IMG/VR virus record: IMGVR_UViG_3300022879_000177
Coordinates: 1-28,130 of that record
From: a virus
Taxonomy: Duplodnaviria > Caudoviricetes
Length of the DNA stretch: 28,130 nucleotides
Strand: one strand, 5' to 3'
The notes under the pieces are model-generated. The model searched no databases. It saw nothing but the letters and a program-made list of their open reading frames with translations, and was not told where the DNA came from. Made by a program: the position numbers and the translations under genes. Of the stretch, positions 3,477-28,130 are shown one piece after another; the stretch's first letter is position 1, and the number at the start of each line of letters is the position of its first letter.

Positions 3477-3602
3477 AACGTCAGCAGGGTAGTTTGCCGG
3501 CCATCCTACCCGAGCTGGCGCGATCGGTCCCGGCTGAACCCTCTGCACCTGTTCCGTCGCAGTGAGCTTTGACGTATCGCTTCACCGTGCCTGAGGCGCC
3601 TC

Positions 3603-3653
3603 AAGCAAAGTGGGTGCCGCTGCTGAATGAAGTTGAGATCAGGCGCCAGCCCG
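3603..3653 (+). pseudogene. micro-fragment of a tyrosine integrase
   Basis: Encodes WVPLLNEVEIRRQP, versus WVPVLNELGIRRRP in the integrase at ~27987-28028. Confidence 0.55.
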
Positions 3654-3779
3654 AGTATCTGATCACTTCATTTATAGTGAGGCCGTGAAGGGGTTCGCTC
3701 TTGCGCCGAAAGCCATCCTGTAGCGAAGATGCTGACTGGAGCACATGTGTACTCCAGCCAGCTGTGACTGCTCTCCGCT

Positions 3780-4082
3780 CTATTTCGAGCAGGCCGCGAG
3801 ATGTTCTGTTGCAACCAGGCCCTCGGTGGCGATTCGGCGCGCACGTCCCACGCCCCAAGCCAGTGCCCTGGTCATCGACTCGCCTGGGCGGGAGTCGATG
3901 ACCTCTTCGTGAAGCGCAGCGCCAGCGGGCGCATAGACGCCGATGAACATCTGCGTGTTGCCCGTCCGCGCCAGCCTCACCTGAACATCGATAAACGTGC
4001 CGTCATCGAGCGTTTCGTCGTGCTCTCGGTGGTGGAGTGTGGGATCCGCCCACTGCCAATAAACGTCTCCGCGAATTCGCAT
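3780..4082 (-). CDS. hypothetical prophage protein, paralog of 24051-24350
   Basis: GGAGG RBS before ATG at 4082; MRIRGDVYWQWAD..HDETL.DGTFIDVQVRL.RTG.TQMFIGVY shared with the paralog. Confidence 0.8.
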   Translation of the reverse strand: MRIRGDVYWQWADPTLHHREHDETLDDGTFIDVQVRLARTGNTQMFIGVYAPAGAALHEEVIDSRPGESMTRALAWGVGRARRIATEGLVATEHLAACSK

Positions 4083-4325
4083 GCCGCCTCCTACGACTGA
4101 AGTCATTTCGTGTATGGCCAAAAACCACGATAGCGAAGCGCAGCCGCTGCACAACTGGAAAAGGCCGAACTGCGAACTGAATCGGACCGCCGGCCCAAAA
4201 ACTTCTACACCACCAATAACTTGTACAACTTTTGCCGTGATATAGCGGCCAAGCACGACGTCATGCCTGGAGAAAGTAACTGATTCAGCCGCTAGCCATT
4301 GAGCCTCGTAGAACGAGCGCCGCAA

Positions 4326-4769
4326 GAGCGGACAAAGACCACGCATCACCGGATAATCCTGCTCAATGAGCGGGCGCAACGCCATCAGCTAGGCACGGCG
4401 AATGGCCAACCTGAAGCGCATGGCCTCTAATCTGCTCGCCCCGTCAGTCCGTTCGTGTTCCACCCTCGTAAAGGTGGGCTGTGGATCAACGAGCCAAGTG
4501 TTACAATCCGCCACTTCAAATCAGCGCTCAAGGCGCTGGACATCCGTGAACGCCGTCAGTACGACACCCGCCACACCTACGCAACCATGTGCCTGATGCC
4601 TGGGATGAACCCTGCGTTCATTGCAAATCGGCTTGGCCACAGCGTCGAGATGTTGCTTTCTACCTACGCGAAATGGATCAGCTCCTCCTCGGACTGGAGG
4701 GAGCTGGAGAAGCTGCCGCCCCGCGTCGAATTTGCCCAAAATTGGCCCAAAAATGACGAGAGGGCCTAA
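4326..4769 (+). pseudogene. tyrosine integrase C-terminal remnant
   Basis: ERTKT...LLNERA (frameshifts and a stop) then YDTRHTYATMCLMPGMNPAFIANRLGHSVEMLLSTYAKW; N-terminal half absent. Confidence 0.9.
4731..4753. repeat. putative integrase arm-type sites
   Basis: Tandem TTGCCCAAAA / TTGGCCCAAAA at the integrase 3' end. Confidence 0.45.
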
Positions 4770-4801
4770 ATACACCTCTGGAACCCCCGCAGGACAAGCA
4801 C

Positions 4802-4834
4802 TTGATTTCTACCGCTAACATCACCATGCAGTTT
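4802..4834 (+). other. att core: duplicated 5' end of an ABC-F ATPase gene (ybiT-like)
   Basis: TTG ATT TCT ACC GCT AAC ATC ACC ATG CAG TTT = (M)ISTANITMQF, the N-terminus of YbiT-type ABC-F proteins; continues into unrelated sequence and stops after a few codons. Confidence 0.75.
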
Positions 4835-4913
4835 TTTAGTGGTGTTGGCCGGTGGTAAAGGGTTGATTTCATTGGGCTCAGCCCCCCTCCGCTCCCCCTC
4901 AATCCCCCATCAG

Positions 4914-4932
4914 TGGTATCAAAATTGGTATC
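4914..4932. repeat. putative integrase arm-type sites of the right-hand element
   Basis: TGGTATC-AAAAT-TGGTATC direct repeat ~80 bp from the att core. Confidence 0.5.
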
Positions 4933-4951
4933 GCTTCTTGTACCGCCAACT

Positions 4952-5077
4952 GTCCGCTATCGACCCATAGCTGCCTCTCGCGAAGGGCAGCAATCGGCCA
5001 ATAGCAGCCGTTGGTGGGCGGCTGCTGTCGACCCATCGCTGCCTGTCAGCACAGGCAGAAATCGGCCACAAGTTGAC
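4952..5077. repeat. cluster A: four 24-bp quasi-palindromic units, 34-bp period
   Basis: Units start at 4952, 4986, 5020 and 5054; central hexamers CGACCC, CGGCCA, CGACCC, CGGCCA. Confidence 0.9.
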
Positions 5078-5135
5078 GTTCGTTCAAGACGGCTCAGAGG
5101 AAAAAATATTCGCCCCTTGCTCGGAGCGAGCTTAT

Positions 5136-6056
5136 TTAGCGCCACCGACCTTTTGCGGTGAAGTTAATCTGGCCAGAGCCGGGGTCCATATGCATCATGA
5201 TTTCTTGAGGGGGCTCAATAAACACGCTAGGAAAACCCCACTGAATGGGCGGCTGGATAACGTCACCACTAGCACTTACAAAAGCAACTCGCATTCCACT
5301 TCTGCTTTTCATCAATTTTGAATAGTTGCCATCTGAACTCTTGCCGCCATGCACCAATCTTTCCTCAGGGAATCCCTCAAGATACTCCAGATATTTAATA
5401 AAATTATTTTGCTTCGCTACATCCCCTGCCAGATACTTAATAGAGGCGTCTATGCTTTGTTTGTCGCAGAAAAATGTATAGTTAATGCACCAGAGGTCTT
5501 TGGTTATTTCATTTTTCAGAGGGACTGACCATTTAACCAGCGGCAACGACCTTGAAGGCATTACTCCATCACTTTCAGCTTCACCCCCAAACAAAGAGGA
5601 AAGAACTGTGGATTTAGCCTCATCAAATATTACGCAGACCGGAGCGTTGATTTTAGGCTCGAATTTAGCCAGTTCATTAAACTCTTTGCTTAAAAATATG
5701 CTTCTTTGCTCGTCAAATATAATATCGCCTTGACTAACGCATCCGCGAAACATGAAGTTGCTGGCCACGCCCAACTCCAAAAACAAATGAATAGATCCTA
5801 TGAAATTGTTAACAGATGCAATATTTTCGATATCGTGGGACACTAAAAGTATTGAGTCGGAAACGATTTCTGATATTTCGAAGTTGTTGCCTGGACCTTC
5901 ATAGTCGTCAGGCACTCCGAAAAATACTTTGGTTTTTGCTATATCCACAAATTGAGAGTACTTATGGTAGATCTCTTCAATTCCAAAATTCTCAATCATG
6001 GCGGAATAGCCAAGGACATCTAGAAAGCATATCAATCTATTCTTGTAATGTTTCAA
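5136..6056 (-). CDS. class III adenylate/guanylate-cyclase-like domain protein with unknown C-terminal region
   Basis: FLDVLGY, VSDSILL and FRGCVSQG motifs (two metal-binding Asp positions); TTG start after AAGGTG; AT-rich. Confidence 0.65.
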   Translation of the reverse strand: MKHYKNRLICFLDVLGYSAMIENFGIEEIYHKYSQFVDIAKTKVFFGVPDDYEGPGNNFEISEIVSDSILLVSHDIENIASVNNFIGSIHLFLELGVASNFMFRGCVSQGDIIFDEQRSIFLSKEFNELAKFEPKINAPVCVIFDEAKSTVLSSLFGGEAESDGVMPSRSLPLVKWSVPLKNEITKDLWCINYTFFCDKQSIDASIKYLAGDVAKQNNFIKYLEYLEGFPEERLVHGGKSSDGNYSKLMKSRSGMRVAFVSASGDVIQPPIQWGFPSVFIEPPQEIMMHMDPGSGQINFTAKGRWR

Positions 6057-6177
6057 AATACACCTTGAATAAGTTGTTATTTCGAGGACTCATTTCGAGC
6101 ACTTGCATAGATACGCTACCGTTTCGACAGAATGGTGTCCATTGAGCGCTTCTGCGTCACCGCCCTTGGTCCTGACC

Positions 6178-6235
6178 GTCCTCTTTTGGCCGACTCCCGC
6201 CTGTCGTGACCGGCAGAGAGCGGCCAAAAGCAGAC
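6178..6235. repeat. cluster B: two 24-bp units in inverted orientation
   Basis: Units at 6178 (core TGGCCG) and 6212 (core CGGCCA); CTTTTGGCCG pairs with CGGCCAAAAG. Confidence 0.9.
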
Positions 6236-6281
6236 GTTGAGTTTCTTGCCGAGCCTAAACAGCGAGTCGAATCTCTGCGCT

Positions 6282-7115
6282 TCATTGTAAGTTTGCTGGG
6301 CCAAAAGTACCGGTTATTTTCCAAACCGTAGATTGATGCTCTTCAAATTTTCCGCCCAAATCTAATCCGGTGCCCTTTATGGTGGCTTTGAAACCAGCAT
6401 TCAACCCGTAATCATCCGAGTACGTTAGTGACAAATTGAAATTCTTTAATCCGTTGTTTACGCGAGCGGTGGCAACAGCTTGCCAAAGGGCTTCATGACG
6501 GTACCAAGTCAGATTCTCAGGAATTGACGGTGCGTCATGCCCTGTCAGTTTTGCATCAAAAATAATTGCGGAGTTCTCTGCTCCCTTTTTGCCGACGCCG
6601 ACCGATGCAGAATCTCCAGTTGGGGTTGTAACGCCGAGGCCTGCTGAAAATTCTTGATCCCAGCCGCTGACATGCTCAACCTTGATTTCATTAGCGCCAA
6701 GGCTCGATAGAAGCGTTATCACCTCTGCAAACTTATGTTCGAACGCCTGACGGTGAAACGAGCTAGCAGTGTAGTACATCAGAGGATTTGCTGGATGCTG
6801 AGCGTAAACAACATTTTCTCGCGGATGACCTGGCGGAAAAATAAGATTCATTTTCTTAGATTCTGAATAGCTGAGAGTGGTGAGATCAGCCCCTTTATCC
6901 AAAGCCTCCATAATTGTTTTAATTAGATCTACGGCTTGCTTGCCGAGAGTGATGGCAAATGGCTCTCCATAAAAGGAGAACACTGAATTAGCGATCTTCT
7001 GTACGAAAGTTTCTTCAGGCGCTACTTGTGCCATCTGGACTTCGCGCATTGCTTCAGCTGTTTTATCCGGGACCACGACAATCAGTCTATGGCCAATCTC
7101 GTAGCTGTCATCCAT
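6282..7115 (-). CDS. hypothetical protein, beta-rich
   Basis: 277-aa AT-rich ORF; YAQHP..YY, LLSSLGANEIKV and LTWYRHEALWQ blocks; no function recognised. Confidence 0.75.
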   Translation of the reverse strand: MDDSYEIGHRLIVVVPDKTAEAMREVQMAQVAPEETFVQKIANSVFSFYGEPFAITLGKQAVDLIKTIMEALDKGADLTTLSYSESKKMNLIFPPGHPRENVVYAQHPANPLMYYTASSFHRQAFEHKFAEVITLLSSLGANEIKVEHVSGWDQEFSAGLGVTTPTGDSASVGVGKKGAENSAIIFDAKLTGHDAPSIPENLTWYRHEALWQAVATARVNNGLKNFNLSLTYSDDYGLNAGFKATIKGTGLDLGGKFEEHQSTVWKITGTFGPANLQ

Positions 7116-7264
7116 GAGGATTTCGATACTCTAAGTAGATTGATAAATGGTGGTTTTCAGAGCCTACTCGATTTGGAAAGGAACTCCAACTGCGAGCTGG
7201 TTGATCTCTACCTGATCTATTCGCTGGTACGCCTATGACATGGATGACATTTTGAGCCGATGCT

Positions 7265-7322
7265 GTCAGCTTTTGGCCGCGAGCGGTCCTAGGCGAAGGG
7301 CAGCTATGGGTCGATAGCGGCC
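7265..7322. repeat. cluster C: two 24-bp units, inverted relative to cluster A
   Basis: Units at 7265 (TGGCCG) and 7299 (GGGTCG); reverse complement of 7299-7322 matches 4952-4975 at 23/24. Confidence 0.9.
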
Positions 7323-7514
7323 ATTCACTTGCCGCAGGCTTCACGCCGGGTAGCGGTTTTCAAAACCGTGGCATAAACGCCCGATCCATGCGGCGCCAGA
7401 AGCGAAATCGATTCCAAAACAAAGACGAAACGGCACGGCTACAGGCCGCATACTGCAAGGGGCGCCGTTTGGGTTTTGGAATCGATTTAAGCGACTTTCA
7501 CGAGGCTCTTCGTC

Positions 7515-7934
7515 ATGACGCAAAGTGAATTCTTCAAGCGCCTTGGCGCGCCGCTCAAGAACACCCGTTGGTCGTGGGGTGCTCTTCGAACGGGTGGCGC
7601 TCTTGTGCTCAGACTATGAAAAGATCGCACAAGGGAGTTCGACGGGCACTGCTTCGCAATGCTCACACATCACAAAAGATACGCGCATAACCAAGGAAAC
7701 CCCGGATACAAGGAGCGCAATCGTCACGTAGAGGAAATACGTGGCGGAACTTGCTGCTACATGGTCATGTGCCAAGTAGAAGACGTTGCGGCCACCCCCC
7801 GTTAGATACGCAGCTTTGACCAGGAAAACGTCTACCTTGGAGGGACCTTGCGTGAGTTCGAAGGGGACTGGTGGATCGAGATCGTGAAGCCGATCCCCGC
7901 TGCCGAGCTGTTCAGGCCAGTACTGCAGCAGTAG
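7515..7934 (+). pseudogene. hypothetical gene with two in-frame nonsense codons
   Basis: MTQSEFFKRLGAPLKNTRWSWGALR...VLRL*KD...TPR*IRSFD...WWIEI; TGA at 7617-7619, TAG at 7803-7805, frame otherwise intact. Confidence 0.7.
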
Positions 7935-8100
7935 CGTAAGAATCACAGCTCAGGCCGCGCCGTTAGCGGCCTATGCATCGCAGCTGTCTAATATGCATTG
8001 GCGAGTTTGGGCGACTTTCGCCCAGTAAAACCGAGAAACATCAGCGCGGTTTTAGACAGCCAAAGCACCCTCCTCCGGCGTTCTGCCGACCCCTCCTCTT

Positions 8101-8388
8101 TTACTTTTTGGCCGGCCGCAGTATCTCGTGCACGTAGTAGTTCGGCTCTGGCTCGATGTACTTGAACAGTCCGCACGCGTACCACTCCTCGTGCTCGGCC
8201 AAGCCGTACAGCCGCGCCGACTCGACAAACTCGAGCATCTCGCACAACTGATCAGGATCCACCTCTCGGCGCCGGTGCGCCGCCTTTGCCATCTCGCTCA
8301 GGACCGCCGCAAGGCCATCTGGGTCGGTGGCCAATTCGCACTGGTCGTTGAGCTCATCCAGCCAGGCTCTCGGCAATGTGCTCATCAT
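8101..8388 (-). CDS. hypothetical prophage protein, second gene of a LexA-box operon
   Basis: ATGA overlap with the upstream gene; [15 protein letters not shown]...[14 protein letters not shown]. Confidence 0.7.
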
Positions 8389-8677
8389 TCTGCCCGGCAC
8401 CACCACGACTGCGCGTACAGCACACCGTCGATATCCTCGATGCCGTTGATGTTCATCCCGAGCTGGGCCATCCCGTTGACCTTGGCGTCGTGCAGTCGCG
8501 GGATGATGTCGCCGCTGGCGTCGGGTTGAACACCCAGGCCTGGGTGGCCACCCGGCCAAGCGGCTCACTGTGGTGGTCGCCGATGTGGATGTCGGCCCGC
8601 AGGGGCTTGATCTTCCTGAGCTGATCGTTGGGGATGGCCACGCCATTCACGCGGCGGCGCACGAGGAGGAAGTACAT
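8385..8677 (-). pseudogene. hypothetical prophage protein, frameshifted
   Basis: [12 protein letters not shown]...WVFNPTP, then continuation [18 protein letters not shown]...[10 protein letters not shown] in another frame after ~8515, ending in an ATGA overlap. Confidence 0.7.
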
Positions 8678-10016: not shown

Positions 10017-12044
10017 ATGAGATTTGAACCAATTTGCCAGGCAAGGCAGGACGTGATTTACACCCAAACGCTGGTGCTTATTGCGGTTATAATTTCGGTT
10101 GTATCTGCTGCTTTCGCCCTACAACATCTGTTCTCCCTAATTCAAATTGGTTCACACATAGTGACTCCCACTCTTGCAGAGCCAAGGGTGGCAACCCCGT
10201 CACCTTTTGCTCCCGAACCAGTTGAGCGGGCTATCTTCGTTACTCTTGCAGCCCTGTCACCAATCTGCCTAGTAGCAGCGGCAAAACTAATGAAAGCGAG
10301 GGCCCCTACTAACTTTGCCAGATGGCCCATTTCCATTGCGCTCTGTATACTCTTGACCGCTCCTTTCGTGTCATCTGAATTCACATCAGTTCTATTCTTC
10401 CCAGTATCGTTAGCACATGAAAGCAGACCAGTAATGCTATCAGCCGCAGCGCTGCTGACGGCGATGGTACTCGCGGAGAACAAATTCAGGTCATCCCAGG
10501 CTAAGCCCGGAGGCGCAGCATTCCTAATCCTATCGTGCCTTCTTGCCTTCTTCTTGCAGATTGCACCTTATCGAGTGGCCTCGGAAAACACTGTAACAAC
10601 TGCGGCGCAATGGTCAGTCAGTTATGATGCCGCGATATTTGCGCTTACCCAAGTGATCGCTGGAAAAACCCTACTTAGCGACCTGCCATCTCAATACGGA
10701 TTATTTCCTGAATTAATCGCCCCTATCTTTAAAACCATAGGATCTAGCATTTTCACCATAAACACATTCTTCGCCACGCTTCAAATGCTAGGCCTGTATT
10801 GCATTGCAAGCATACTAAACAGATTCATCCGCAACACAGCATTGAAAACAATGACTTTCCTCTGCGTGATCATTAGCACGGGTCTATTCCTTTACCTGAA
10901 CGAGGTCAAGGAAGAATTATACATGCAATACTACCCTATTCGTTTTATTTGCCCCGCCGTAGCATTGCTTGCTTTTTCCGCATACTGCATAAACCCATCA
11001 AGAAAACTAATTGTCGCACTCGGAATCATTTCAGGAATATCCATATTCTGGAACTTCGATTCGGGCATCCCCGTCCTTATCGCAATATGTGCAACACTGT
11101 TCGTGAGGCCAGCATTCCGGGACAGCCCTAGCATTAGAGATTGGTTCCCCGCCCTATCAGTATTTGCTATAGCAGCGGTAGTATTCTTGGCCTTGATGAC
11201 TAACTTAAGGATAAAATCCGGTGCTCCTTTACAAATTGGAGAGGCAATTTCCTACCAAAAACTATTCTATGGCTCAGGCTTCATGATGCTGCCTATGCCT
11301 ACAAACTTTAATCCCTGGCAGGTTGTCATATTGGGTTTTGCCGCAGGCGGTGTAGCCTCTCTCACAGGATGGCGACGCAGAAGCAAAAATCCCGTTTACG
11401 ACTTTTTGTTCTGCGTTTCACTTATGGGCCTTGGCCTTTTCACCTATTACCAAGGCCGTTCACACATATTCTGCCTGATGATGGTTTTGTGGCCAGTTTT
11501 GATTGTGGCAGGCATCCTTACTGATTTAGTCCTTCGATCACTACAAAAGGGTCGCACCCACAGTAGCTCACTACTACTGGCATTACCGTTTATCTCCTTC
11601 GCGAGCCTCGGAGCCACAACACTCGCCTTTAGTAGCGATGAGTTGATCACCACAGGATTGACCAACCTCCAACGCATTAACCAGCCTAAAGACAAACTGG
11701 TCACAGACGAGCTAAACTTCCTACGTGCAACTGACAAAGGGCGCAACTGCCTAATCCTGTCTCAACGCCAAGCAATTTATCATGCAGAACTCAATACATC
11801 ATCTCCAGTTTCAGGCCCAGGAATGATCGAGACGTTGTTACAGAAGGACCTGGATGAGATGCAAAACAACGCAATGAAAAGCAACATAAACTGCATCTAT
11901 CTTGGCATCGGCGAATACTCGCGCACGCTAGCCAAACTTAACGACAGTAGATTAATAGCTGAATATCCCATTATCGCAAAGAACGATCTAGGCACGATTT
12001 TGTTACTGGAGCCAAAGCAAACAACTATCAATCCAGCCAAATGA
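10017..12044 (+). CDS. large polytopic membrane protein, probable GT-C-like surface-polysaccharide modification enzyme
   Basis: 675 aa with more than 10 hydrophobic segments; periplasmic-type loop GKTLLSDLPSQYG; AT-rich; antisense to the tail/lysis operon. Confidence 0.6.
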   Translation: MRFEPICQARQDVIYTQTLVLIAVIISVVSAAFALQHLFSLIQIGSHIVTPTLAEPRVATPSPFAPEPVERAIFVTLAALSPICLVAAAKLMKARAPTNFARWPISIALCILLTAPFVSSEFTSVLFFPVSLAHESRPVMLSAAALLTAMVLAENKFRSSQAKPGGAAFLILSCLLAFFLQIAPYRVASENTVTTAAQWSVSYDAAIFALTQVIAGKTLLSDLPSQYGLFPELIAPIFKTIGSSIFTINTFFATLQMLGLYCIASILNRFIRNTALKTMTFLCVIISTGLFLYLNEVKEELYMQYYPIRFICPAVALLAFSAYCINPSRKLIVALGIISGISIFWNFDSGIPVLIAICATLFVRPAFRDSPSIRDWFPALSVFAIAAVVFLALMTNLRIKSGAPLQIGEAISYQKLFYGSGFMMLPMPTNFNPWQVVILGFAAGGVASLTGWRRRSKNPVYDFLFCVSLMGLGLFTYYQGRSHIFCLMMVLWPVLIVAGILTDLVLRSLQKGRTHSSSLLLALPFISFASLGATTLAFSSDELITTGLTNLQRINQPKDKLVTDELNFLRATDKGRNCLILSQRQAIYHAELNTSSPVSGPGMIETLLQKDLDEMQNNAMKSNINCIYLGIGEYSRTLAKLNDSRLIAEYPIIAKNDLGTILLLEPKQTTINPAK

Positions 12045-18580: not shown

Positions 18581-19369
18581 TTAATCCTTGTCTTGATTGT
18601 TATCTTGATCTTGGTGGTTATCGCTCACTTCCGATTTGAGTTTTTTAGTAATTTCAACTATCTGAGCAGGAGTCAGAGCTAGATCCGCCCAGCGCCTAGC
18701 AGAATCCGACTTCATTTCAGGGACTGTACTGAGATAATTCTTCCATTTCATTAAGTCAGAAGTGGGCATTATCGCAGGTTGCTGAGTCTCTAAAATAGAA
18801 ATACGTTTAGACATTTCACGAGTAGCGCTGAGTATTTCCATCATCACATCTTGTTGAGGGCGTGGCTTACTAATTTTCTCAGGCTCGTTCTCTGCTAACG
18901 CCAACGCAAATTCAGTCTCAAATTGAGGCCAGTATACGGCAAAAGCTTTTTCCAAGACACGCTCGCCTAGTGAGCGCTCCGCTAGGCAGGCGTTAAGAGT
19001 TCGTATTAACTCCCATACGCTCTCTTTATTTGGCTTAGTATGATTGAACTGAGCAAGGGGGTCAGTTAGATCGTGAGGTTCAAGATCAACAAGGAAGGTG
19101 CAAACGCGATTCCCGCTCAGCCCCTTAGCGAGGGCTCCTGACTCAAAGAGAATCCAGGGCTTATCCTTGTTGTCGTGAGTTAAACACACAATTCCTACCG
19201 AGATATCTCGGAGCTTCTCATTAATTTCAGTGAACCATAACGCCCCTCTGTCAATATGCTTAGTAGATATCCAAGGCTCTGATGCTTGTAATACGCATTT
19301 AATCCAGTCACTAAGAACCTCCGCTACAGCTCGACTCCGATCACCAGACCAACTGATAAAGACTTTCAC
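18581..19369 (-). CDS. TIR-domain protein with helical C-terminal region
   Basis: KVFISWSG, PWIS...IDRG..W, GIVCLT and PWILFESGAL (conserved Glu); GTG start after GGAG; AT-rich. Confidence 0.85.
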   Translation of the reverse strand: MKVFISWSGDRSRAVAEVLSDWIKCVLQASEPWISTKHIDRGALWFTEINEKLRDISVGIVCLTHDNKDKPWILFESGALAKGLSGNRVCTFLVDLEPHDLTDPLAQFNHTKPNKESVWELIRTLNACLAERSLGERVLEKAFAVYWPQFETEFALALAENEPEKISKPRPQQDVMMEILSATREMSKRISILETQQPAIMPTSDLMKWKNYLSTVPEMKSDSARRWADLALTPAQIVEITKKLKSEVSDNHQDQDNNQDKD

Positions 19370-19479
19370 GAGCACACTCCGATGCAATTGATATCAAACT
19401 ACCTTAATACCGCATCCCAAACCAAATTGCCACCATGCCGCATCCGGCCACGGAGGGCGGCGCATGCATGGAGAAAGCC

Positions 19480-20550: not shown

Positions 20551-21213
20551 TCACGCACTGAGAAACGGGTGCTTTTCAGCATAATATGTTGGATAAGGGT
20601 CTTCCTCATCTTCGTAACTTACAATGGAGAAAGATTGTCTACCCAGACGACCGACGCGGCTTGTGTATTCAACTGACAAGACAAAGTTTTCCCATGGATT
20701 CATACCACTCCTCCGGAGAGATACGCAATCACCCGAAAACATTGTACCTATGCCTTTGTTTGGATACTCTCTACCTCCAAGCTCAGCAACAACTTTAATG
20801 TCTTCGCAATACTCTCCAAGATTATGCAAGTCAAAGGAAAAAAAGAAGTCACCTTCACTATCCCAGCCGGTACGGGATGCCACAACTTTGAAAAGCGGCT
20901 CAAGAGAGTTTTCATGATTGCGGAGAGAAATCTCATTTGCCGAAGCCATCTTCGCCTGCTGAGTTACAGAATTGTTTAATTCCGTCGCTTGAAGCTTAAG
21001 AGCCTCTGTACCCTGCCTTAACTCGTCGCCTTGCTGAAAATACCCAAAAACCAGCCAAGCCAGAGCCAATGGCCCGAAGGCTCCCGCGAGATAATCTCCT
21101 AGCTCATTAAGTTCCAATACCTTCAGATCGTCGACTCTAAACAAGCACATCAGTGTAAAACCAGAGATATAGAGCGTCGAAAATATTAGGGCCAACTTTG
21201 TCCTTAAGCTCAT
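20551..21213 (-). CDS. hypothetical two-TM plus coiled-coil moron protein
   Basis: LNELGDYLAGAFGPLALAWLVFGYFQQGDELR block; AT-rich; antisense. Confidence 0.75.
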   Translation of the reverse strand: MSLRTKLALIFSTLYISGFTLMCLFRVDDLKVLELNELGDYLAGAFGPLALAWLVFGYFQQGDELRQGTEALKLQATELNNSVTQQAKMASANEISLRNHENSLEPLFKVVASRTGWDSEGDFFFSFDLHNLGEYCEDIKVVAELGGREYPNKGIGTMFSGDCVSLRRSGMNPWENFVLSVEYTSRVGRLGRQSFSIVSYEDEEDPYPTYYAEKHPFLSA

Positions 21214-21267
21214 TTCTATTGAATCCCTCTTTTTTCCAGGCAAACATAGTACTGGCCAGGAGCTGCC

Positions 21268-22118: not shown

Positions 22119-22967
22119 TCAGTCATCAAACTCGAGGTAGAGTAGATCCTTAGCTATCGCGTCATTAATATTTTCCGCGCTCATCCGCCCCCCCTTGGTA
22201 TCACTTTTCTGAAGGACCTTTTTACCTATTACAAGGAATTGTTTTCTGAAAGAGAGATATTCCCTAACACCTTCATGACCTAGGTCAAATAAGCGATTAC
22301 GCTCTTTTAGCCCAAAGTCTTCAGAAGTCCGTAATGGATCTTCATAACCTTCTGGAAAGCTCATGAAAGTATAGACTACATTGATTATCCTCGTAGGGAT
22401 CCAGCTTCTACCGCCGTCTGGGTGAGTCGGGCTAGTAACAACATCACCAATGGTCTGACCTTGAGCTCCGCCGCAAAAAAAAGCACCACAAATCTCTTTA
22501 CCATCAAGCCGCAACAAATCGCGGAATTTGTGCCGCTGGAAGTCACGCTCAGCTTCAAAAATCAAATTATGCGTTTCAGTTGTTATTTTGCTGCTCAACG
22601 CCTCTGCTCTAGAGATCAAGCGAGCAGAGGTCACCCACGCGACTCTATCGTTAGTCAACTTACCATCCGACACAAGGACACTAGCCGCTCTATCAATTAA
22701 TGACAAAGCACTTCCCAAATTCGTAGCTGATTGTGCATATTCTTTTTCATGCCTGTAAGACCCAATACCAACAATCATGGTGCCAGCAATAAACAGCATA
22801 ATAACCACTTGTATGCAGTCTGCCAGCTGCATGGTTTGAACCTTTGGGGCAGCGGCCCATATAAACAACATGCACGCCAAGGAAAACACTATGCCAATAA
22901 TTATTGGCATCAACTCACGAGTGCACTGCAATAAAGCCCGGAACCACTCTCGAATCCAACTACGCAT
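22119..22967 (-). CDS. hypothetical two-TM moron protein
   Basis: Long AT-rich antisense ORF; two N-terminal hydrophobic segments; start uncertain (22967 or 22997). Confidence 0.75.
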   Translation of the reverse strand: MRSWIREWFRALLQCTRELMPIIIGIVFSLACMLFIWAAAPKVQTMQLADCIQVVIMLFIAGTMIVGIGSYRHEKEYAQSATNLGSALSLIDRAASVLVSDGKLTNDRVAWVTSARLISRAEALSSKITTETHNLIFEAERDFQRHKFRDLLRLDGKEICGAFFCGGAQGQTIGDVVTSPTHPDGGRSWIPTRIINVVYTFMSFPEGYEDPLRTSEDFGLKERNRLFDLGHEGVREYLSFRKQFLVIGKKVLQKSDTKGGRMSAENINDAIAKDLLYLEFDD

Positions 22968-23118
22968 TAAAACGCCCCATAGCAAATTATTTTGCACAAA
23001 TTAATCGACTTCAAAGCCAATTTTTCGCGACTACTAACAGCCTTTATGGATCCGAAAGACTGGATGAGCGAGATTACCATTCATATCAACTGCACAGCCA
23101 ATCCGGCGAGGTACAGCC

Positions 23119-26865: not shown

Positions 26866-27198
26866 ATGGAAACCCAAAGTACCGGTGACGTCGACAAGGT
26901 CACCGAACAACGCATGGCTGACCTGCTCGGCTGCACCAAGCGCTCCCTGGAGCACCGCCGCCAGCGCGGCACCATTCCCGAAGGCGTCTGGATTAAGCAC
27001 GGCGGCCGGATCATCTACAGCAAGAAGAGGTACGACGAATGGCTGGAAAGCCAATGGATTTACCCTGAGGGATCGAAGTCTTCCGTGGCTCCCTCCGCAT
27101 TCGTTTCACATGGGACGGTATCCGTCGATGTGAAACGCTCCCCTACCCCGCGACACAAAAAGGCGTCAAAGCTGCATCCGTCCTTCGCGATCAGGTAA
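26866..27198 (+). CDS. excisionase-like protein
   Basis: EQRMADLLGCTKRSLE..R..G.IPEGVW winged-HTH-like; overlaps the integrase 5' end. Confidence 0.75.
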   Translation: METQSTGDVDKVTEQRMADLLGCTKRSLEHRRQRGTIPEGVWIKHGGRIIYSKKRYDEWLESQWIYPEGSKSSVAPSAFVSHGTVSVDVKRSPTPRHKKASKLHPSFAIR

Positions 27199-28130
27199 CC
27201 AGCCTTAACAGGCTCGGGCTGTTAGACCAGGACAAATACGCCGAGCTGTTCCCGGGCTCCCAAACAGTGGTCGGCGGCAAGCCGACCTTCGGTGAGTACG
27301 CTCAGCTCTGGCTGGATAGCCGCGAGATCACGCAAGGCACGCACAACAACTACAAGAGCGCATTGAACCTGTATTGGGTGCCGCGCCTGGCCATGGTGCG
27401 TCTCGACCTTATCACCACCACCCTGATCCGGCGCATCATCACCGAAACCGAATGGACCTCGGCGAATGTGAAACGCAATGCGATCACCAGGTTATCGACG
27501 ATCCTGGCCGCCGCCGCGCGCGAAGGTCTGCTGACGAAGAACCCGGCCGAGGTGATCGAGCTGCCGAGGCGGTCGAGAAAGGAGATCGACCCGTTCACGC
27601 TCGACGAAGCCAACACCATCATCGCCAAACTCTACGAGCACAAGCACTGGCCGAGCCGGATTTACGCGGCGCTCTTCGAGTTCATGTTCTTCACAGGTCT
27701 GCGGCTCTCAGAGGCGTTGGCAGTACGATGGGATGTGATCGATGAGGAGAAGAAGACGGTGCACGTCAAGAGGACCGTCGCACTGGGCGAGGTTGAGGAA
27801 AGGACGAAGACAGGGAGGGATCGGTTCGTCCTGTTGAATGAAAGGGCTTTGCGGGCGATCCAGTACGCCAGGGAGTACGCGGAGCGCCGCAAGCATGGGA
27901 AGGGAGCGGTGACCGTGAGCCCGTTCGTGTTCCCGCCATCGAAGAACGCGGAGTACGTGAGGCAAACGTCCGACCTGCACAAGCAATGGGTGCCGGTGCT
28001 CAATGAATTGGGTATCAGGCGTCGGCCCCCATACAACTGCCGTCACACCTATGCGACAATATGCTTAATGTCCGGCCTCAACCCCGCATTTATCGCCCAA
28101 CAGCTGGGTCACAGCGTGCAAATGCTGCTG
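27039..28130 (+). pseudogene. tyrosine integrase with arm-binding domain; nonsense codon at codon 10; cut by the window edge
   Basis: MAGKPMDLP*GIEVFRGSLRIRF...FTGLRLSE...YNCRHTYAT...QLGHS; TGA at 27066-27068, open thereafter. Confidence 0.85.

Follow-up and report, generated by a model that had tools for sequence, protein, structure and literature searches.

Cre/loxP, Flp/FRT and engineered cassette exchange use 34-bp sites in which inverted arms enclose an asymmetric core, and heterospecific cores act there as separate channels. FimB and FimE, of about 200 residues, and the R64 shufflon (Rci) invert DNA between inverted sites. The pdif modules of Acinetobacter have a 6-bp spacer between the arms and single genes between inversely oriented sites; their description also gives two module types defined by the inward-facing arm, modules without a gene, inversion or deletion between identical or near-identical spacers, and module replacement via cointegrates (PMC13141974). 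Simple tyrosine recombinases fall into subgroups with a core-binding and a catalytic domain, and the available part of that account names no catalytic-only group (PMC8138268). The present analysis concerns an array of eight 24-bp units in IMG/VR virus record IMGVR_UViG_3300022879_000177, which carries Pseudomonas prophage genes; "the window" denotes the whole stretch of 28,130 nucleotides analysed. The units are read as crossover sites for module swap and inversion, the likely enzyme being a tyrosine recombinase of 206 residues encoded elsewhere, and this reading is given a probability of roughly three in four. The pdif modules are a closer analogue of the array than integrons: the system behaves as dif modules do, on sites unrelated to theirs and probably with an enzyme of its own, and is best classed as a variant of dif modules that may prove to be a separate system.

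The units stand in clusters of four, two and two (Table 1), and each consists of a 9-bp arm, a 6-bp core and a second 9-bp arm, repeated within the clusters at a period of 34 bp. This layout had been described in a first-pass annotation made by a model from the letters of the window, and all eight positions were recovered: in a leave-one-out matrix the 8 units scored 16.4-28.6 bits, each above every background position (maximum 12.7-14.8 bits at 28,051 other window positions). The orientations given there were also reproduced, units 1 and 8 forming an inverted pair with a 23/24 match and 6221-6235 agreeing with the reverse complement of 7265-7279 at 14/15 positions. The two arms of a unit are, however, complementary at only 3-8 of 9 positions (3/9 in units 4, 5 and 6). 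The 10-bp spacer is non-random, with TC...GA conserved 3-4 bases beyond the 24-mer, so the arms may reach 13-14 bp; judged by sequence pattern, the 34-bp period could represent two abutting full sites of 34 bp (14+6+14). Scanning of 3500-8500 against Rfam (E<=1) gave no match, and tRNA and tmRNA scans were also empty.

The changes of gene content revealed the role of the units. In one and the same prophage slot, the loci L038, L040, L041 and L045 are alike to the end of the first unit and carry different cargo after it, and L038, L040 and L045 regain the shared sequence at the last unit. The similarity of two further loci (L036 and L057) to the window stops at position 20 of unit 1. Duplicate loci were removed before the analyses of alignment ends, junctions and linkers. 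Among 100 unit-bearing loci, 31 of 372 internal alignment ends, which are not all independent, fell on a unit in both loci, compared with 0.08 when the units were shifted and 0.68 (maximum 5) when they were put at random intergenic positions. Junction pairs were dropped where the sharing fell short of the unit or continued beyond it; 46 of the 57 left-shared pairs passed the filters and formed 16 independent groups, and 6 of the 10 right-shared pairs were dropped. Across the 16 groups the agreement at variable positions was 94/96 for the shared arm, 27/32 for the core and 27/64 for the far arm, the last value being near the background between random units. In the mirror junction, L110 and L147 become identical at the core and stay so beyond it. 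In tyrosine recombinases the overlap region is expected to go with both sides of the crossover, and a core shared with both sides fits such a region. The backbone retains its outer arm while the cargo changes, and single units also serve as breakpoints. The units are therefore almost certainly site-specific crossover points. The earlier proposal of recombination sites with tyrosine-recombinase layout is supported by these breakpoints at the cores, and gene-content breakpoints were found at the units, as had been put forward for checking.

One natural inversion was also mapped to the cores of two units, sites 2 and 5, an event which the first-pass annotation had recommended to look for. In four sequencing runs (X9, X10, X13 and X17; isolate assemblies of organism B from four studies) the block is about 98% identical to the window, and 4994-6193 is inverted relative to 6194-7279. 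The inversion joint lies at 4994/6194 and 5002/6186 on opposite strands, where 8 nt fit both sides; these shared bases span the core CGGCCA of site 2 and the core TGGCCG of site 5. In organism B the block ends outwardly at 6193 and 7279, each the edge of a core, with foreign sequence after 6193 and a different arm beyond 7279. The four assemblies are counted as probably one event because nearly all substitutions are common to them, and misassembly at the joint seems unlikely, the 8-bp repeat being too short. The organism A contig of run X7 is colinear with the window over 4993-7320, and its foreign flanks begin at site 2 (loose end 4993) and in the outer arm of site 8 (7320). The soil-metagenome runs X1, X6 and X8 and the locus L298 are identical to the window and, as its probable source, were excluded from the evidence; short joints in these runs, with a side of about 30 nt, were also set aside. 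In organism B, cargo gene 1 carries a frameshift at 5984.

The profile scan suggested in the first-pass annotation indicated that the units form a Pseudomonas-wide family. Of 121 evenly sampled Pseudomonas genomes, 90 contained the strict pattern (231 matches, 0-9 copies per genome), while the reversed control gave 3 matches and the same arms with a scrambled core occurred in 4 of the 121; one site-positive genome (G097) enters only these genome tallies. Single units and dimers were present on four Pseudomonas plasmid matches, three of them confirmed by the matrix, and in 20 viral loci. The pattern scan of genome contigs gave at least 122 loci, of which the first 80 were taken; 17 with fewer than two units, mostly chance matches outside Pseudomonas, were left out, giving 63 loci. 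An iterated matrix detected 415 units in 910 kb and 3 in shuffled sequence. The core was CGACCC in 168 and CGGCCA in 163 of the 383 distinct units, intermediates being rare; the seed pattern itself fixed about one core of each kind per locus. Beyond the seed matches, 83 dimers had a spacing of exactly 34 bp and 10 pairs had other spacings below 200 bp, the thresholds differing slightly. Most units (296/308) lay outside long open reading frames, where 32% is expected. Neighbouring units separated by genes formed 107 pairs, facing inward in 61, in the same direction in 37 and outward in 9; genes mostly lie between inward-facing sites, the gene itself being in either orientation. Arm-to-arm pairing within units equalled the independent expectation at 12/12 position pairs, and the site is therefore read as duplex sequence.

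The 28 bp between adjacent cores recur as modules without a gene. Among 166 same-direction linkers, 43 pairs agreed at 26/28 positions or better against 0.48 after column shuffling, and 33 of the 46 similar linker pairs of all orientations had unrelated flanks on both sides. The first linker of the window was found at 28/28 in L181 and 27/28 in L115, two loci which came from the pattern scan and not from window similarity; its identity ends at the cores, the outer arms differ and the flanks are unrelated. The back-to-back linker matched L267 at 27/28 and L262 at 26/28, loci that were fetched by window similarity and are not independent. Non-seed same-direction dimers join different cores in 26 cases and the same core in 6, and the linkers would fit an adaptor role between cores. 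As the unit of exchange is the segment between two cores, the first cluster (cluster A) is better read as three gene-less linkers than as the single empty slot suggested before, and the 58-bp dimer is not that unit.

The 711 proteins of the 63 loci were clustered, and only one recombinase family, a protein of 206 residues, repeatedly adjoins units. In 32 sequences, with identities as low as 56%, the residues R57, K85, H154, R157, H180 and Y189 never vary; with this R-K-H-R-H-Y set and the catalytic fold the protein belongs to the tyrosine recombinase superfamily. PF00589 is the only domain in 32/32 members, and the predicted model shows a catalytic domain with about 25 poorly ordered N-terminal residues, its fold matching XerA, XerH and Cre. 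The scores are far below the XerC, XerD, IntI and Fim cutoffs (25 against 265 for the integron-integrase model TIGR02249, and 22-28 against 222 for the Fim model NF007371). In loci picked by protein alone, 18 of 22 (two of the 22 are duplicates) had a site 45-85 bp upstream or 28-35 bp downstream of the gene, all outward-facing, whereas phage-integrase control loci had a unit at the gene start in 0/66 and within 100 bp downstream in 0/42. Of the 63 unit-bearing loci of 12 kb, 7 contained the family, where the genus sample would predict 0.05. The recombinase module has its own conserved inner arm which stays with the gene, its core and outer arm vary, and its sites face the opposite arm type from those of cargo. 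Beside the same cargo, L110 has the recombinase module and L147 a 28-bp linker in its place; the module alone is a mobile unit of about 730 bp. Near distant members, similar arms with other cores were found in 7 of 35 loci and in none of the shuffled ones. These associations make the catalytic-domain-only protein the likely enzyme of the sites. Its gene is not in the window, so it would act in trans, as the first-pass annotation had supposed.

The recombinase family is very abundant: all 8,000 scored candidates matched, and it was found in 425 plasmid records and in 38 of 301 genomes across the phylum, its members being annotated only as 'integrase'. Some are located on resistance plasmids, and no resistance gene was seen between units. 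Titles and abstract openings in the literature gave no account of the unit sites or of the 206-residue family. The same arm type with different cores (TCGCTC, GTGCCA) accompanies the family members of L234, an E. coli plasmid, and of L279 and L280, and L234 lies near IS26 and sul2/strAB. In L230 (3265-7947), from a Pseudomonas plasmid, the ptx phosphite-oxidation operon is flanked by a weak unit on one side and by the gene of the small recombinase on the other. On a Pseudomonas megaplasmid (L001, 3336-8055) an inverted outer unit pair encloses a serine-recombinase gene and two RepB-like genes, and a similar gene trio adjoins the small recombinase in L237.

Under the proposed crossover mechanism, the recombinase would cleave where the 6-bp core meets the arms. 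A joint would consist of arm, core and arm, and whatever lies between two cores would form a module, whether cargo (one gene or an operon), the gene for the recombinase or a linker of 28 bp. Matching cores would be needed, so CGACCC and CGGCCA would act as two channels; inverted pairs with the same core would invert, and direct pairs with the same core would excise. Modules would be exchanged when a phage, plasmid or island recombines twice in succession with a second array, first into a cointegrate and then by its resolution. Linkers could convert core type or orientation and thereby allow the chaining of modules. By retaining the outer arms of sites 1 and 8, the prophage would maintain a permanent slot for cargo.

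Several observations weigh against this mechanism or against the assigned enzyme. The 37 same-direction pairs around genes show no preference for identical cores (same core in 12, different in 19, ambiguous in 6), and the core differs across the junctions at 5/32 positions. The matrix found units in only 9 of 21 orthologous prophage ends, although a degenerate unit can be seen by eye in the end of L040, and several other prophage ends carry cargo with no unit found. L039, L042, L059 and L043 lost the block by larger deletions whose far ends are not at units, so a clean empty allele was not found at this slot; circles or mixed populations were not seen in the contigs. On the side of the enzyme, the gene is absent from the window, and in 28 of the 35 loci of distant members the Pseudomonas arm matrix detected no site within 150 bp. 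The absence of a core-binding domain makes the recombinase a structural puzzle, since reading of a 9-14 bp arm is then hard to explain. The enrichment of about 150-fold beside units is inflated because sites and gene both sit in accessory islands. Co-occurrence of one recombinase family, put forward earlier as a check, held for the physical tie to the sites in the protein-picked loci and not at the level of genomes, where sites were present in 27/33 with the gene and 63/88 without it (Fisher p=0.35).

The same observations bear on a different reading, in which the crossover sites are true and a host recombinase, XerC/XerD or another conserved one, acts on them or is needed, the small recombinase being a frequent passenger. 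It would account for sites in 90 of the 121 genomes when the small recombinase occurs in 33 of the 121 with many copies broken, for bracketing by sites, which is expected of any passenger cargo, and for a 206-residue protein without a core-binding domain. Host XerCD is used by dif modules (PMC13141974). The data on the small recombinase make such a reading unlikely: it has conserved inner arms of its own facing the opposite arm type from cargo, similar arms stand beside its distant members, and no other recombinase among the 711 clustered proteins repeatedly adjoins units. A XerD-arm-like 5-mer was also not enriched in the units (18/383 against 18 shuffled), and the unit arms are GC-rich, which separates the array from pdif modules. 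The two otherwise share the crossover at a 6-bp core between two arms and the placing of genes between inward-facing sites, as for both window genes and the 61 inward pairs, and also two module types, gene-less modules, inversion between identical spacers and a cointegrate exchange, here a proposed one. Here, however, one mobile recombinase, with a catalytic domain only and forming a module of its own, is the putative enzyme; two cores alone dominate, and mixed-arm linkers of 28 bp are frequent and give the 34-bp period, whereas pdif C and D modules normally alternate. The pdif modules are those of Acinetobacter plasmids, and the present units lie in Pseudomonas prophages, plasmids and chromosomal islands.

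It is very improbable that the units are scars or ends of a selfish element similar to a miniature inverted-repeat transposable element (MITE) or a repetitive extragenic palindrome (REP) and accumulating in islands, with breakpoints made by microhomology or homologous recombination. Their short, dispersed and intergenic nature and the mobility of the recombinase module alone would suit such an element, but sites 1 and 8 are not surrounded by a target-site duplication of 3-10 bp, the outer arm stays with the backbone, and identity falls at the core edge and not randomly within the 24-mer, so that the junction map largely refutes the idea and the array differs from MITEs and insertion sequences. 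The low strict copy number per genome, the absence of self-pairing covariation and the REP tetranucleotide GTAG/GGAG (161/383 units against 243 shuffled) distinguish the units from REP and REPIN elements. Mixed orientation and 10-bp spacers, compared with 26-45 bp in CRISPR, together with the empty Rfam scan, separate them from CRISPR arrays.

The 58-bp dimers were considered as single-stranded hairpins of an integron-like system, similar to attC, or as hairpin telomeres. They do fold (-22.6 kcal/mol for the bottom strand of 6170-6243), and same-direction dimers are mildly complementary at 3 of 39 position pairs (p<=0.004), a signal that can stem from recurring linker lineages. Back-to-back dimers lacked covariation (1/39 pairs at p=0.048), as did the arms within units, the attC core GTTRRRY occurred in 12/383 units against 31 shuffled, single units act as breakpoints too, and the recombinase is far below the integron-integrase cutoff; hairpin folding has accordingly scarcely any probability, and the hairpin, attC and hairpin-telomere models were rejected for want of covariation. 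The resemblance to integrons is confined to arrays whose single genes or operons are low in GC and unrelated, a few of them with matches to anti-phage families, to arrays without an enzyme nearby and to special sites beside the recombinase gene. The genes here are in both orientations between mostly inverted sites, the recombinase is about 110 residues shorter than IntI, and no IntI is present in the window. The earlier label integron-like fits poorly because arm covariation and attC core enrichment are lacking and genes lie mostly between inward-facing sites; its companion statement, that the units are not attC, CRISPR or REP, agrees with the tests for each. Use of the units as accessory sites by the prophage's own or an island integrase, to which the start of the array 120 bp from att, one large integrase ending 7 bp from a unit in L110 and integrases near the plasmid loci L001 and L003 might point, can practically be dismissed, as the same units occur on plasmids and on chromosomal islands with unrelated integrases or none, the phage-integrase control loci had no adjoining units and the att core differs in sequence from them.

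The preferred reading, crossover sites served by the small recombinase, was compared with the remaining described systems. The array resembles Cre/loxP and Flp/FRT in the 34-bp site length, the inverted arms and the separate core channels, and the predicted recombinase fold matches Cre; it differs by the 6-bp core, degenerate arms, natural multi-site arrays and lack of a core-binding domain. The Fim and Rci systems differ in that no invertible promoter or fused gene tip is present here and cargo is exchanged between replicons, not merely flipped. The 206-residue protein, with PF00589 only, also stands apart from the simple tyrosine recombinases in the part of their description available (PMC8138268). 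On balance, with odds only slightly better than even, Proteobacteria could possess here a further large system of gene modules, the third after integrons and dif modules, in which a self-mobile catalytic-domain-only recombinase carries out natural cassette exchange with two heterospecific cores and travelling 28-bp linkers that adapt core types and orientations to each other, stocking prophages, plasmids and islands with defence and other accessory genes. If this is true, a short motif would flag exchangeable accessory-gene modules in about three quarters of the sampled Pseudomonas genomes and could be used like attC to list candidate anti-phage and niche genes. It would also give a site-specific cause for the fast gene turnover at prophage ends and island hot spots, and a testable substrate to a very abundant family labelled only as integrase. 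For engineering, a recombinase of only 206 residues whose two natural cores do not cross-react would offer a compact tool. The system may add to plasmid plasticity, family members being present on resistance plasmids.

Table 1. Units, linkers, cargo genes and flanking features of the array (window coordinates)
Feature	Position	Strand	Remarks
Phage integrase C-terminal remnant (older prophage)	4455-4769	+	stops before att core; in-frame stops upstream
att core	4802-4833	+	first codons of host gene; about 120 bp upstream of array
Site 1	4952-4975	+	core CGACCC 4961-4966; left arm is prophage backbone
Linker 1	4967-4994	.	between core CGACCC and core CGGCCA
Site 2	4986-5009	+	core CGGCCA 4995-5000; left inversion breakpoint and left block end in organism A
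Linker 2	5001-5028		best match elsewhere 22/28
Site 3	5020-5043	+	core CGACCC 5029-5034
Linker 3	5035-5062		best match elsewhere 24/28
Site 4	5054-5077	+	core CGGCCA 5063-5068; arms degenerate; bounds cargo module 1 on the left
Cargo gene 1	5136-6056	-	306 aa; GC 0.41
Site 5	6178-6201	-	core TGGCCG 6187-6192; right inversion breakpoint
Back-to-back linker	6193-6220	.	joins two cargo modules
Site 6	6212-6235	+	core CGGCCA 6221-6226; left boundary of cargo module 2
Cargo gene 2	6282-7115	-	277 aa; GC 0.46
Site 7	7265-7288	-	core TGGCCG 7274-7279; right block end in organism B
Fifth linker	7280-7307		between cores of sites 7 and 8
Site 8	7299-7322	-	core GGGTCG 7308-7313; outer boundary; inverted partner of site 1

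The two enclosed genes are AT-rich, as described earlier, compared with a GC of 0.56 for the window. Cargo gene 1 has 50 homologues and no match in Pfam, NCBIfam, PADLOC or PDB sequences; an atlas lead of 0.87 to PF00211 clusters gives a weak indication of a class III cyclase-like fold. Its relative in L257 (77% DNA identity) also lies between units with other neighbours, and the six distant relatives L299-L304 (32-48% identity) had no flanking units (0/6). Cargo gene 2 has 80 homologues, none of its family in 401 genomes of the order, and no match in Pfam, NCBIfam or PADLOC. Its predicted model (pLDDT 79) gave no Foldseek match in PDB at E<=0.001, and a gasdermin lead (atlas score 0.88) had no support from Foldseek. 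The relative in G364 (L258/L269, 81-84% DNA identity) has units on both sides and other neighbours, and in L091 and L092 no unit was found upstream, the contigs ending at the gene. The stretch 7095-7264, from cargo gene 2 to site 7, is about 80% identical to unit-adjacent sequence with other cargo in L259 and L260, and may be the 3' remnant of an earlier gene. Among 87 between-unit proteins, hand-picked and without a control set, 16 matched PADLOC, including Shedu, a defence reverse transcriptase and a type IIG restriction enzyme.

The array is situated just within the end of a second prophage, after the integrase remnant of an older one and the att core, and the integrase of the second prophage lies at the far end of the window. 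The remnant matched the Pfam Phage_integrase model at E=0.0017, below the cutoff, and has 72-75% DNA identity to Pseudomonas phage integrases. The position of the block about 120 bp from an att core, as first stated, was borne out: L026, L049 and L055 run on into the host gene there, and matches in sequencing-run contigs have loose ends at 4802, 4829 and 4833. The host gene is presumably ABC-F-like, to judge by its sequence. BLAST of the window against phages and plasmids matched the integrase remnant and isolated units only, the cargo being unmatched. Many viral loci have the same tandem-prophage junction as 4455-4950, which comprises remnant, att core and new prophage arm; within the new arm, at about 4914-4932, a short direct repeat may represent integrase arm-type sites.

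Other low-GC accessory genes of the prophage, among them one for a TIR-domain protein (PF13676), have no units around them (18581-19387, 20551-21243, 22119-22997 and 10017-12044). The prophage integrase at 27050-28130 is truncated where the contig stops and carries an in-frame stop close to its beginning. Just beyond the array, 7517-7935 is a pseudogene of about 140 codons with two in-frame stops. A non-coding element of 137 bp (7352-7488), with the inverted repeat 7405-7427 / 7466-7488, follows the array and is common to the prophage ends L038, L040, L045, L046, L056, L058 and L088 (76-90%), with or without units; loose ends occur at its right edge, 7485-7488.

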